This document shows positions 59,042 through 64,000 of a stretch of DNA of 64,000 nt, piece by piece. The notes under the pieces were generated by a model. The model worked only from the letters and a program-made list of their open reading frames with translations, made no database searches and had not been told where the DNA came from. The DNA comes from an uncultured Gammaproteobacteria bacterium (GTDB lineage Bacteria; Pseudomonadota; Gammaproteobacteria; Chromatiales; Chromatiaceae), in NCBI GenBank assembly GCA_963753615.1, contig CAVWCW010000029.1, positions 1,418 through 65,417 of the forward strand, written 5' to 3'. The stretch's first letter is position 1. Each line of letters opens with the position of its first letter. The position numbers and the translations under genes are program-made.

Positions 59042-60706
59042 ATGTCAACACCACTGCTGTTGCCGCAGAATGACCCAGACCGGCAAGGGCGCGCCGACGA
59101 CCTCGCCGAGATGCGCGACACCTACGCCTACCGATACGCGTACAACGACAGCATCGCCACCGCGATCGAGGTGCCCCGCAGCGAGTATCCCGACCTGCAC
59201 TACAAGCGGCAATTGTTGAAGAACCTGGCGCCTCTGTTGTTGAGCCTGCCGCGAGTGCTGGGACAAACCCTACGCAGTTGGAGCGGCAAGGCGGTTGGCG
59301 ATCACCACAACTACTTCTTCTTCGCCAACTCGCCCTATCCGGACCGCCGCTTCATCCGCGACTTCCAAAGCGACCGCGAGTTCGGCCTGCAGCGGGTGGT
59401 GGGAATGAATCACTTGATGACCCGCGCCCTGAGCGCCGAGGAAACACTCCCGCCCGGCCTCCCCGCGGCCGAGCTGGAGCCCTTGTTTACGCGCCTGAAA
59501 ACGGGTCAGAGTCTGGCCGAGGCGCTGGCCGCCGGGCGCCTCTTCCTGGCCGATTATCACCCACTGCAGGGCTTGGCCGACGACCCGGGCGAGTTCGACG
59601 GCGCGCGCCAGTACATTACCGCCCCCTTGGCCCTGTTCCACCTTGGAGCCGAGGGCAGCCTGCTGCCGGTTGCGATCCGCCTGCAACAGCAGGCGGCCCC
59701 CGAGGCCCCGCTGTTCGGCCCCCACCAGGGCGAGCATTGGCAGGCCGCCAAGTTGTTCATGCAGGCCGCCGACGGCAACTACCAGGAGATGATCAGCCAC
59801 GCCACCCGCATCCACTACCTCGCCGAGGCATTGGCCCTCGCCAGCCGGCGCAACCTGCACCGCCGTCACCCCCTGATGGCCCTGCTCGATCCGCACCTGA
59901 GCTATACACTGAAGGTCAATTCCGGCCGCCTGTCCCTGGCCGATAAACAGCGCCAGCCCGGCACTTTCGGCAAGCTGTTCGGCGGCTCCTACCAGGCGAT
60001 GATCGACCTCATGGCCGAGTCCATGCGCAGCTTCGACTTCCAGGCCAACGCCCACCCCGTCGACCTGCGTTGCCGCGGCATGGACAATTCGGAGCTGTTC
60101 TACCCCTACCGTGACGACGGGCAGCTGATCTGGAAGGCCCTGCAGGACTTCGTCGAAGAATACCTGTACGGTTATTACGCGGCGGACCAGGACCTGGAAG
60201 CAGACCCGGAACTGCAGGCCTGGGCGGGCGAGATGGGGAGCCGGGATGGCCTTCGGTTAAACGGCTTTCCCACCGCCATCAGCAGTATCGGACAACTGCG
60301 CGATACGCTAACCAACCTGCTGTTTACGCTCACGGCCCGTCACAGCTCCATCCACTTTGCCCAGTATCAGTACGCCGGTTATGTGCCCAACATGCCGCTC
60401 GCCTGTTACCTGCCGCCGCCCACCGACCCGGACCGCCCCCTGGAGCCGGACTACCTTCTCAAAGCGCTGCCACCCTTTAGCCCGGCCCTGCACCAATCGT
60501 TCATCTTTTACCTGACCAACTTTCGGGTCAACCGCATCGGCGATTACCGAATGGATGCCTATGACACCTCTGGCCAGGCCGCCATCCTGCGCTTTCGCGA
60601 CAAGCTACGGGAGGTGGGCGCGCGCATTGACGCCGGCGATCGCAAGCGCCTCTGTTCTTACCGGCACCTGCACCCGGACTGGATTCCCAACGGAGCAACG
60701 ATCTGA
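59042..60706 (+). CDS. Lipoxygenase (short, PLAT-less bacterial type, 554 aa)
   Basis: WQAAKLFMQAADGNYQEMISHATRIHYLAEALALASRRNLHRRHPLMALLDPHLSYTLKVN has the HxxxxH iron ligands (H253, H258). ARHSSIHFAQYQYAGYVPNMP has the HxxxH/N ligands (H434, H438). The C-terminus IPNGATI ends in the terminal Ile ligand. No signal peptide is seen. Confidence 0.85.
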   Translation: MSTPLLLPQNDPDRQGRADDLAEMRDTYAYRYAYNDSIATAIEVPRSEYPDLHYKRQLLKNLAPLLLSLPRVLGQTLRSWSGKAVGDHHNYFFFANSPYPDRRFIRDFQSDREFGLQRVVGMNHLMTRALSAEETLPPGLPAAELEPLFTRLKTGQSLAEALAAGRLFLADYHPLQGLADDPGEFDGARQYITAPLALFHLGAEGSLLPVAIRLQQQAAPEAPLFGPHQGEHWQAAKLFMQAADGNYQEMISHATRIHYLAEALALASRRNLHRRHPLMALLDPHLSYTLKVNSGRLSLADKQRQPGTFGKLFGGSYQAMIDLMAESMRSFDFQANAHPVDLRCRGMDNSELFYPYRDDGQLIWKALQDFVEEYLYGYYAADQDLEADPELQAWAGEMGSRDGLRLNGFPTAISSIGQLRDTLTNLLFTLTARHSSIHFAQYQYAGYVPNMPLACYLPPPTDPDRPLEPDYLLKALPPFSPALHQSFIFYLTNFRVNRIGDYRMDAYDTSGQAAILRFRDKLREVGARIDAGDRKRLCSYRHLHPDWIPNGATI

Positions 60707-60825
60707 GGCGATGCGCCCGCGTCGGGAACCCCGGCGCGGCACGCCCCAGACATCCGCAACCGAGCTACGGCCCCCCAACCGCCAATGCGGAACTCGCCGC
60801 CGAGCGAATCGCGCTCGATCCGCGC

Positions 60826-61236
60826 TCAGTTCTTGGCGGCGGCGATTTGCTGCAGGGTCTGGGCTTCGAGATCGATGCCGACCTCCAATCCCGGGTTGAG
60901 CGAAATGCCGAAACCCACCCCAAGACGCTCCAGCACCCAAGTGAATTCTGCCACCAGCCCGCCCTCGTACCCCGGATAATCGCGCACAAAGGCCTTGGCC
61001 CGCTCCGGGCCGGTAAACAATACCAGGATCTCCCCCCCGCTATCCTCGTCCTTCAGGGACAGGGGTTTAGCCTTCTGGGACGTCACAAAGCCGCCGATCT
61101 GGTGCTTTTCGTAGACCGGCATAAACACCTCCGAGGCCATCAGGGTATCGATGAACTGCTGGGGGGTGGCGCGGCCCTCTTGGGCATCGAGCAGAACGCG
61201 CTCGAGGTCGTTGCTGGGCTGGAATTCCTGACTCAT
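60826..61236 (-). CDS. SseB-family protein
   Basis: NDLERVLLDAQEGRATPQQFIDTLMASEVFMPV...ILVLFTGPERAKAF resembles the SseB N-terminal domain pattern. The length is 136 aa. Confidence 0.7.
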   Translation of the reverse strand: MSQEFQPSNDLERVLLDAQEGRATPQQFIDTLMASEVFMPVYEKHQIGGFVTSQKAKPLSLKDEDSGGEILVLFTGPERAKAFVRDYPGYEGGLVAEFTWVLERLGVGFGISLNPGLEVGIDLEAQTLQQIAAAKN

Positions 61237-61719
61237 GGGGGCTCCTGAAATGCTTTGGCAAGCCCACTATATGTAGGCGGCCCAGGCAAAGGCAAGAGAA
61301 GCGCCGATCAAATGCTTTTTCGTTCGGCCTCTGGAAAAAACTGCACGGAACGGCTGCTTTCAACGTTGCCCAAAGCAAGCGGCCAATGTTTGAACGAGTT
61401 CACTCGGCTTCTCGTCCCGTCTTGACCTGAACGGCGCCCTAACCTAAGTTTCAAGGGCGGCGGCCTGCTCCAAGCCGGCGTTTCCGAGGTCCTGGACCGA
61501 GACGCGCCTCTGCGGGGCTACCCCGCGGTAACTTACTCGAAACGGCATCCCGCTGCATGAGCGACGCTGCGCCCCAGCGCAGACCCGCTCATGCGGGACA
61601 AGACTGGTTGGAGCCGGTCGCCGCATTTTCGCTTCCGGGCGGCTAAAAATGGCGGGGCTTCCTGCCCCGCACGAGAAGCGCTGTTAAACAAGGGTTTCAC
61701 CAAGGGGGTCGACAGCCCG
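61237..61719 (+). ncRNA. Candidate structured non-coding RNA region upstream of the reverse transcriptase (possible retron msr-msd); boundaries unknown
   Basis: 483 bp with no credible ORF and several GC-rich hairpins: 61435-61459; 61510-61528 (CTGCGGGG-cta-CCCCGCGG); a composite 61548-61598 (TCCCGC..ATGAGCG..CTGCGC-ccca-GCGCAG..CGCTCAT-GCGGGA); and 61652-61670 (GCGGGGC-ttcct-GCCCCGC). A 9-bp inverted repeat GCTTCTCGT (61407-61415) / ACGAGAAGC (61671-61679) brackets them. Confidence 0.3.
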
Positions 61720-63108
61720 ATGCAGCAGCGCCAACGGGTCGCCTTGGCCTTGGCCGACGCCTTTCTCTGCGGTGCTCCCAAGCCATCCGAGCTGATCGAG
61801 CGCGGCAGCGCCGCCCTGGGCGATCGCGTGCCCTGGCTGGCCCCCCTGGCGACCCGCACAGGATCGGCGTTCGGTGCACAATGGCCGCCGGAATCCGCCG
61901 CGCTGGGGCGGTTCATACTAGCCGACCCGGCCTTCCGCCAGAGTTGGCGCGAGCCTGGCCCAAAGCCGCGTATCCGCCGTTGGTTTCTGCCCGCCTCGAC
62001 GATGGGCGAGCCGGTGCCCCCTCTGGCGGCCTGCGCCCTGCCCTCACTGGCCAGCCCGGGCGAACTGGCGGCATGGCTGGGGCTGAGCTGCAGCGAACTG
62101 GACTGGCTGGCCGATCCCTGGGGCAGCGAGCGGCACTCCGCGGTCGGGGCCCTGCGCCATTACGTTTACCGCTGGATTTCCAAACGCCGCGGCGGCCAGC
62201 GCCTGCTGGAGGCGCCCAAGCCCCGCCTGCGCTCCGTGCAGCGGCAGATTCTGCGAGGCATTCTGGACCCGGTGCCGCCGCACCCCGCAGCCCACGGCTT
62301 TCGCCGCGGCCGCTCCTGTCTCAGCCATGCGCAATCCCACTGCGGCCGGGTCCTGGTGCTGCGCATGGATCTGAGCAACTTCTTCACCCAGGTGCCGGCA
62401 CGCCGGGTGCATGCCCTGTTCGCCTCCCTCGGCTACCCCCCCGCGGTAGCCCGCTGCCTGACCGGGTTGTGTACCAATCGCACCCCGGCCCGGGTGCTGG
62501 GTGGTCGGCTCGGGGAGCGGCCCGAGCTCGACTGGCAACAACGCCAGGCCTTGCAGCATCCGCACCTTCCTCAGGGGGCCCCAAGCTCGCCGGCCCTGGC
62601 CAACCTGGCACTATTCCGTTTCGATCTGCGCCTGGCCCGCGCCGCTGCTGCCCTGGGCGCCCGCTATACCCGCTACGCCGACGATTTGGCCTTCTCTGGG
62701 GGCGCGGTCTTCGCCCGACGCGTTGGGGCCTTTCACGGGCTGATCTGCCGCGTCGGCCTGGAAGAAGGGTTTCCGGTGGAAACCCGCAAGACCCGGGCCA
62801 TGCGCCAAGGGGGGCGCCAGCAGCTGACCGGCATCCTGGTCAACCGCCACCCCAACCTGCGACGGCGCGACTATGACCGCCTCAAGGCTATCCTGCACAA
62901 TTGCCTCAAGCTCGGGCCAGCGGGACAGAACCGGGAAGGCCACCCGGATTTTCGAGCCCACCTGCAGGGCAGGATCGCCCATCTGGAGCTGTTGAACCCG
63001 CCCCGGGGACAGAAGCTGCGGGCCCTGTTCGAGCGCATTGAGTGGGGGGAGTCCGTTATCCACGCCACGGGCGAGCGCGGTCCAATCTGCTCCCCGGGTG
63101 CCCGCTGA
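61720..63108 (+). CDS. Retron-type reverse transcriptase with a ~140-aa N-terminal extension
   Basis: RT motifs present: AHGFRRGRSCLSHAQSH, VLRMDLSNFF, LPQGAPSSPALANL, YTRYADDLAFS (YADD at 62674-62685), QQLTGILVN and RRRDYDRLKAILHN. The ATG at 61720 has AAGGGGG 11 nt upstream. The frame is open back to 61591. An alternative internal ATG at 62002 would give a canonical ~368-aa retron RT. Confidence 0.9.
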   Translation: MQQRQRVALALADAFLCGAPKPSELIERGSAALGDRVPWLAPLATRTGSAFGAQWPPESAALGRFILADPAFRQSWREPGPKPRIRRWFLPASTMGEPVPPLAACALPSLASPGELAAWLGLSCSELDWLADPWGSERHSAVGALRHYVYRWISKRRGGQRLLEAPKPRLRSVQRQILRGILDPVPPHPAAHGFRRGRSCLSHAQSHCGRVLVLRMDLSNFFTQVPARRVHALFASLGYPPAVARCLTGLCTNRTPARVLGGRLGERPELDWQQRQALQHPHLPQGAPSSPALANLALFRFDLRLARAAAALGARYTRYADDLAFSGGAVFARRVGAFHGLICRVGLEEGFPVETRKTRAMRQGGRQQLTGILVNRHPNLRRRDYDRLKAILHNCLKLGPAGQNREGHPDFRAHLQGRIAHLELLNPPRGQKLRALFERIEWGESVIHATGERGPICSPGAR

Positions 63109-63925
63109 ATGCAGCCCCGTAGGAGGGTAAGATCGCCCGAGGTCGAAACCCAGATTCGAGGCTGCCGACAGCGGCATCGGTCGAGCCGCGGTTCGGAGCA
63201 ACTGCGGGCTGGCTCGGAACGGGCAACCCCGACAAACCCCCTGCCCAAGACGGAAGGTTGGCGGGCGCCACCAGCCTCAGGTCATGCACCAGGCCGTCGC
63301 GAAAACGAGACACCGAGGTCGGGCGGCGTACCCGAGCAGCACCAGGCACACCCACGCCCCCGATGCCGGCTGCGTATGAGCGGTCCCGAAGTTCGGGGGT
63401 ACTACTACAAAAAAAGATACCGCGGAACTGAGTAAATGCGGATGCGAACTGGAAAATGGCGCCAAGCGCCATTAGACTCATAAGGGTGTTTCGAAAAATA
63501 CAGCGGCCCCTGCCAGGACGCTGGGGTTCGGGGCGATTCAACCGCCCCGTTCCAAAGGTAAGCGAAATCGCACGGGAAATGCCGTTGCCCAGTTGTGACG
63601 CCGCCGAGCGGAATACGTTCTTTGCAGAGAACGGGCGATACAAGTCTTGTTCGCGGTCGGCCAGCGCCATAAACAGGCAAACGACGCCAGGAAGCGGTTG
63701 AAGTTTTGTATCTGCCGGAGAGCGCGAGTTGACCGATCGGGTCTCGAAACGGGAAGTTGTTCTGGGCATAGGCCTGGTGCAAAATCGACGCGGAATTCCG
63801 GTTCAGCTAACGCTAAACGCCAAGTTGGATCAGGTGGCCGGCGATGCGCAAACCCTTACCCAAGATTCTGAATCTCTACTAGCGGATAACTCGAGGTTGG
63901 TCCCATGGTCCATACGTTGAAGGAA

Positions 63926-64000
63926 ATGAAAATCAGCGTTTCGGATTTGACCTTGGGTTGTTTCGTCTCCAGGTTGGACCGCCCTTGGCTGGACACGCCC
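63926..64000 (+). CDS. 5' end of an HD-GYP-type regulator (DUF3391 N-terminal domain), partial
   Basis: MKISVSDLTLGCFVSRLDRPWLDTP matches the typical start of DUF3391/HD-GYP proteins (...G.YV..LDRPWLDTPF). A GAAGGAA RBS lies before the ATG at 63926. The gene runs off the window. Confidence 0.6.
   Translation, partial: MKISVSDLTLGCFVSRLDRPWLDTP

Follow-up and report, generated by a model that had tools for sequence, protein, structure and literature searches.

It was found that a 168-nt segment of the window (the whole 64,000-nt stretch of DNA analysed here), at positions 61457-61624 on the + strand, is very probably (about 0.85) the msr-msd ncRNA of a stand-alone clade-11 retron. The segment lies in an ORF-free gap of 483 nt (61237-61719) between a divergent SseB-like gene (60826-61236, - strand; Pfam SseB, 5e-11) and the gene of a retron-type RT of 462 amino acids (61720-63108, + strand). 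Several lines of evidence speak for this: the RNA is structured and covaries, it keeps its position and its promoter, certain G residues are conserved, the RT is of the retron kind, and published clade-11 ncRNAs are homologous. A retron msr-msd upstream of the RT had already been proposed by the first-pass annotation of the gap. That proposal holds, given covariation across about 80 loci, the retron geometry with its opposing Gs, the retron-type RT and the clade-11 homology, but the anatomy and the boundaries that were proposed with it do not.

The lack of a coding-quality ORF in 61237-61719, as first described, was borne out by an ORF check, and all four hairpins, like the inverted repeat of 9 bp, were found at the coordinates given for them. 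When the entire gap was folded, the + strand folded better than its shuffles (z = -3.3), while the - strand did not (z = -1.2). An Rfam scan of 60000-64000 with E values up to 10 returned no relevant family match. A consensus promoter scan revealed a promoter-like site for the SseB-like gene (TTGCCT-18-TATAGT, 61295-61266, - strand), which is the sole sigma-70-type match in the gap at the scan threshold.

Is the RNA conserved with the RT? Six close-relative loci (L001 and L015 to L019) were recovered, and their RTs are 62-87% identical to the window RT. L015 and L016 have the same gene order as the window: lipoxygenase, SseB, gap, RT, gap, and HD-GYP. In the upstream alignment of these closely related sequences, seven with the window, only 61406-61632 is near-invariant and the flanks diverge; the mean column identity of the RNA is 89%. 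Four elements were predicted when the seven sequences were folded with RNAalifold: a terminal helix, a hairpin of variable sequence, the hairpin at 61510-61528, and a long nested stem-loop (about 61548-61598). A covariance model of 179 positions, R1, was built from the window and the six relatives. It scores 208.9 bits on the + strand of the window and 36 bits on the - strand. The ncRNA has a single copy in the genome.

I then applied R1 to 83 further loci, 80 of which came from a degenerate-pattern scan with an RT alignment and one genome per species. In 78 of the 83, it gave a full-length match in the orientation of the RT gene and immediately before it. The matched loci belong to Acidobacteriota, Planctomycetota, Actinomycetota, Myxococcota, and Pseudomonadota. 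On the window, the match of the family-wide model stops at 61624-61630, and across the loci a2 and the RT start are separated by an estimated median of 14 nt. The ncRNA is contiguous with the RT, as in classical retrons. Among the whole-genome relatives in the class sample, the nearest two, L004 (G163:C413) and L005 (G346:C9), have an RT homologue interrupted by a single in-frame stop (TGA and TAG, respectively), while their ncRNA match is still full-length. These RT copies may be decaying, or the stop may be an artefact of the match end.

In the resulting alignment of 84 sequences, 89.6% of the cells are paired, compared with 34-55% when the partners are slid by one to three columns. Compensatory changes were found in 52 of the 56 pairs. 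The covariation score is 0.527 versus 0.05-0.11, and none of 500 shuffles reaches any observed value. Because the sequences were aligned by fitting them to the model, the structure is favoured and the pair counts are somewhat inflated, but the margin is still large. Many U-G pairs fit the + strand only (for example, 154:173 in 73/84); together with the scores of the two strands, they fix the RNA on the + strand. The conservation and covariation in homologous loci that had been suggested as a check are thus present for two of the four hairpins, those at 61510-61528 and 61548-61598.

Folded alone, the 168-nt RNA recovers the consensus structure with a minimum free energy of -96.7 kcal/mol (z = -5.85). 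Its terminal helix of 17 pairs is formed by a1 (61457-61473) and a2 (61608-61624), a long-range inverted pair also found by RNAalifold. All 17 pairs show compensatory changes, and 93% of the cells are paired in the 84 sequences. The middle of this helix is imperfect, with one U-C mismatch in the window and a 2x2 loop in L019 and L001. Directly after a1 comes an unpaired base, G61474, which is conserved as G in 76 of 83 sequences; it is the candidate priming (branching) G and would carry the 2′-5′ branch. It had been said that a branching G could not be placed with confidence; a candidate can now be named, and its position after a1 agrees with the published layout of clade-11 ncRNAs. On the opposite side, G61607, just before a2, is G in 81/83 and G61602 is G in 82/83. 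In the window's own minimum-free-energy fold, G61607 is paired with C61475 and is not free.

Between a1 and a2, the msr part has two hairpins, which are followed by the long nested msd stem. The msr stem-loop 1 (61477-61508) varies in sequence and length, and its covarying helices 2-4 have compensatory changes at every pair, with 82-91% of the cells paired. The msr stem-loop 2 (61510-61528), CUGCGGGG-CUA-CCCCGCGG, is almost invariant; 99.3% of its cells are paired, and the GGGG/CCCC core is kept in 78-83 of 83 sequences. This motif is also present in the published clade-11 ncRNAs. The msd stem-loop spans about 61548-61598 with consensus pairs at 61553-61596, and all 17 pairs of its helices 7 and 8 show compensatory changes. 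In alignment A5, the msd stem (61553-61596) has a seemingly unusual conservation of sequence across the five phyla, as in GC.UGAGCG...CGCUCA.GC and the apical CUGCGC/GCGCAG, where each base is kept in 53-81 of 83 sequences. The msd sequences of defence retrons are, as a rule, highly variable.

A putative promoter lies directly upstream of the RNA, with TTGACC at 61422-61427 as the -35 box, a 17-nt spacer, and TAAGTT at 61445-61450 as the -10 box. It was deduced from the sequence and the relatives: TTGACC-17-TAAGTT agrees with the consensus at 8 of 12 positions (3 of 6 in the -10 box), which is under the scan threshold. The -35 box and the stretch CCTAAGTTT, which contains the -10 box, are invariant in the seven close relatives. 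In 68 of 82 loci, the first base of a TAnnnT hexamer stands 11-14 nt upstream of a1, and such hexamers are found almost nowhere else. In the window, a1 starts seven nt after TAAGTT. Since the -10 box stands at a fixed distance from a1, the RNA would start at a1. Transcription would proceed from this promoter, and the ncRNA is probably co-transcribed with the RT gene.

The RT was analysed by PADLOC, PDB, and Foldseek searches. The best PADLOC match is RT_other (3.7e-151, 503 bits), followed by the retron model RT_outgroup (1.3e-140, 467 bits, profile positions 4-407 of 407) and RT_XIII (2.5e-91, 305 bits); the top matches are all retron RT models. In a phmmer search of the PDB, 14 of 15 matches are retron RTs, the best being Ec86 (4e-28). 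The AlphaFold model of the RT has a pLDDT of 92.9, and its best Foldseek match is the Ec86 RT, at a TM-score of 0.84 over the Ec86 chain, with retron RTs occupying ranks 1-18. The catalytic YADD (319-322) is invariant. In region X, which reads HAQSH, H207 is invariant in 99 sequences, and an H or Y stands in place of the N of NAxxH. In region Y, LTG (369-371) is conserved and aligns with the VTG of Ec86. Judging from these matches and from the predicted fold, the RT is of the retron lineage. The assignment to clade 11 in particular is made from the PADLOC model name, the taxonomy, and the ncRNA identity in relatives.

Pfam recognises only RVT_1 in the RT. Residues 1 to about 80 (61720-61960) are modelled as an N-terminal five-helix bundle with a pLDDT of 92-98. 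This domain is conserved across the family, and W39, A12, and G18 are nearly invariant. When it was searched alone against the PDB by fold, no match was found (best E value 3.9). In the protein database, the RT is called as a longer protein (P0001, 505 aa) which starts at ATG 61591 in the 3′ arm of the msd stem, with 43 codons running through the ncRNA and the repeat described below. The longer ORF gains only about 5 bits of PADLOC score. Since the homologues are 435-455 aa in length and ATG 61720 is conserved, the start at 61591 is regarded as mis-called.

In 88 loci, I clustered every ORF of 90 aa or more that lies up to about 3 kb from the RT, and no flanking family occurred in more than five loci. 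The only recurrent clusters were the RT and frames overlapping it. Neither a tripartite-type effector or accessory gene nor an RT-fused effector domain was found here. Downstream of the RT, there is an ORF-free stretch of 815 bp in which a block (63430-63925) is kept in L015 and L017 and not in L019; the block contains a hairpin, ATGGCGC-CAA-GCGCCAT, at 63456-63472. This stretch was considered as a second retron RNA and rejected, as the block (about 63430-63925) is limited to close syntenic relatives. It appears to go with the upstream region of the HD-GYP gene and not with the RT family.

How might the retron work? A sigma-70-type promoter (61422-61450) would start transcription at or next to G61457. 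The pairing of a1 (61457-61473) with a2 (61608-61624) would set the unpaired G61474 opposite G61606/G61607. For retrons, a priming geometry has been described in which G residues face each other where a1/a2 ends on the inner side (PMC7736814, Figure 2B legend). The RT would bind the msr hairpins, chiefly the invariant stem-loop at 61510-61528, prime from the 2′-OH of G61474, and copy leftwards from G61607 through the long stem-loop. In an experimental census, the RT-DNAs of Mestre-1894 and Mestre-1913 start opposite the GG just 5′ of a2 and that of Mestre-1928 starts at the base just 5′ of a2, while all three end 3-14 nt 3′ of the invariant hairpin (PMC10849725). When these ends are mapped to the window, the predicted template runs from G61607 to about 61532-61543, so that the msDNA template would lie within 61532-61607. 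Copying would thus stop about 3-14 nt 3′ of stem-loop 2, and the product would be an RNA-linked single-stranded DNA of about 65-76 nt.

A different geometry had been proposed for the same gap, in which the 9-bp repeat 61407-61415/61671-61679 would be the a2/a1 repeats of an RNA of about 273 nt with all four hairpins. The repeat is a perfect match in the window, but it is one of 34 inverted pairs of at least 8 nt in an 801-nt scan (61100-61900), and it is not conserved: it carries a mismatch in L015 and L016, and its 3′ arm is absent from the other four relatives (L017, L018, L019, and L001). The -35 box comes only after its 5′ arm, and its 3′ arm lies beyond the end of the family model, inside a diverged copy of a dispersed repeat. 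The repeat, about 85 nt long with three hairpins, was outlined from an alignment of eight copies; the copy here occupies 61625-61705, between the ncRNA and the RT start. The segment 61637-61698 of this spacer has at least 39 other copies in the same genome with 75-96% identity, including C27:82346-82407, C21:184673-184734, C11:3197-3258, and about 36 more. With at least 40 genomic copies, the dispersed repeat is REP- or MITE-like and is outside the retron RNA family. Its consensus contains ...TTTTCAGGCGGTTGGACGCCTGAAAATGGCGGGGCATCCTGCCCCGCACGGGAAACGCGATTAAATCAGCGTTTCCC..., and its middle hairpin with a T-run scores as terminator-like on the - strand. It is absent from L019 and L001, and related sequence flanks the RT in L015 to L018. 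The insertion of the repeat accounts for the a2-RT gap of 95 nt here in place of about 14. The 9-bp repeat was therefore rejected as a1/a2, and the larger geometry is scarcely credible. The hairpins do not form one unit, either; two of them belong to the RNA and two lie outside it. The first (61435-61459) overlaps the -10 box, so its 5′ arm is upstream of the presumed transcription start, and it gives no family-wide folding signal (mean z = -0.08 in 83 loci). The fourth (61652-61670) is the middle hairpin of the repeat, whose third hairpin holds the 3′ arm of the 9-bp repeat, and is absent from L019 and L001. The true terminal helix was missing from the features first listed.

The RNA might instead act in cis as a leader of the RT mRNA, such as an attenuator or an RT autoregulation site, and never be reverse-transcribed. 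It stands directly upstream of the RT start with the short median gap given above, is probably co-transcribed with the RT gene, and some clade-11 retrons made no RT-DNA in E. coli. However, the a1/a2 helix with its opposing conserved Gs has the priming geometry of retrons; the downstream enzyme is a retron RT, and homologous clade-11 ncRNAs gave sequenced RT-DNA from the equivalent GG. This makes the cis-acting role improbable. It is less probable again that the RNA is a non-retron template, for rolling-circle cDNA of the DRT2 type or a homopolymer of the DRT9 type. A stand-alone RT with an ncRNA and without an effector does resemble some DRT systems, and the DRT2 and DRT9 RTs occur low in the fold list (ranks 21 and 27). 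Yet retron RTs make up all of the best matches by sequence and by fold, the TM-score of 0.84 to Ec86 contrasts with 0.34-0.40 to DRT2/DRT9, and the RT-DNA of the clade-11 relatives is a single msd copy. The probability is negligible that the segment is a 5′ leader or regulatory region of the SseB-like gene on the - strand, which it adjoins. Transcripts from the promoter-like site at 61295-61266 would have only a short SseB leader, clear of the ncRNA; both the folding and the R1 score disfavour the - strand, and SseB is missing from most of the loci in which the RNA occurs.

The msr-msd RNA of a clade-11 retron is therefore the preferred reading. The lineage is already catalogued and the window RNA is a newly annotated member of it; thus, the gain is one of annotation and not of discovery. 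An unannotated gap of 483 bp has become a bounded retron RNA in which the promoter, a1/a2, the priming G, the template, and the repeat insertion are placed. The covarying alignment of 84 sequences and the coordinates make the lineage easy to test. A question for the whole clade is what role a retron has that lacks an effector but possesses a strongly conserved msd and, at the N-terminus of its RT, an orphan domain. From the conservation of the msd stem and the msr hairpin across five phyla, the lack of an effector gene, and the orphan N-terminal domain, it may be speculated that clade-11 retrons are not toxin-antitoxin defence modules, and that the msDNA-RT particle plays a sequence-specific role in the cell, in which the N-terminal domain serves as a built-in effector or host-factor adaptor. 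I regard this as a tentative and rather unlikely proposal.

Compared with Retron-Eco1 (Ec86; PDB 7v9u and 7v9x), the window system shares the YADD, QGxxxSP, and V/LTG motifs and the logic of a1/a2 with a priming G. In contrast, Ec86 is a tripartite system with an effector and lacks the N-terminal helical extension, and its ncRNA has no sequence similarity to the window RNA and no Rfam or CM cross-match. Type XIII (RT clade 10: Mx162, Mx65, Sa163, and Ne144) has extra N-terminal residues and an upstream ncRNA with a1/a2, and RT_XIII is the next-best specific model. However, the window RT matches RT_XIII with a much lower score than RT_outgroup or RT_other, and Type XIII has its own conserved SWIM/winged-helix and HEAT/ARM partner genes, none of which is at the window locus.

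The closest known systems are the clade-11 retrons. Retron RTs were classified into 11 clades, of which a branch of clade 2 and clade 11 have the stand-alone (msr-msd)-RT organisation (Mestre et al. 2020, PMC7736814). In a 2026 survey, the OutgroupA/B ncRNA models define clade11-A and clade11-B, with no recurrent accessory module, and clade11-A is enriched in Pseudomonadota, Actinomycetota, and Acidobacteriota, including Bryobacterales and Micrococcales (PMC13712802). The taxonomic spread of the R1 loci agrees with that of clade11-A in this survey. Clade-11 ncRNAs are also listed in the experimental census of Khan et al. (PMC10849725 supplement), and the R1 matches include close counterparts of them: the match in L037 is 80% identical to Mestre-1875 (Myxococcus xanthus DZ2), that in L091 is 87% identical to Mestre-1840 (Nakamurella), and that in L084 is 74% identical to Mestre-1823 (Arthrobacter). 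These published RNAs have the invariant hairpin in common with the window and, like it, UGG at the junction with a2. For several clade-11 retrons, RT-DNA was sequenced in E. coli; by PAGE, the yield ranged from 0 (Mestre-1840, -1856, -1912, and -1914) to 2.5 times that of Eco1, the top being Mestre-1928 (PMC10849725). The window differs from these examples in that its RNA shares only the invariant hairpin and the general architecture with them at the sequence level, and in that the dispersed repeat has lengthened the spacing between a2 and the RT. Its lineage is uncultured and has few close relatives (RT at most 87% identical). Otherwise, the window has the same organisation as the clade-11 stand-alone retrons, with a full-length RT_outgroup match, no accessory gene, and an ncRNA composed of a1, a G, a variable hairpin, an invariant CYCNGGGG-NNA-CCCCNGRG hairpin, a long msd stem, UGG, and a2.
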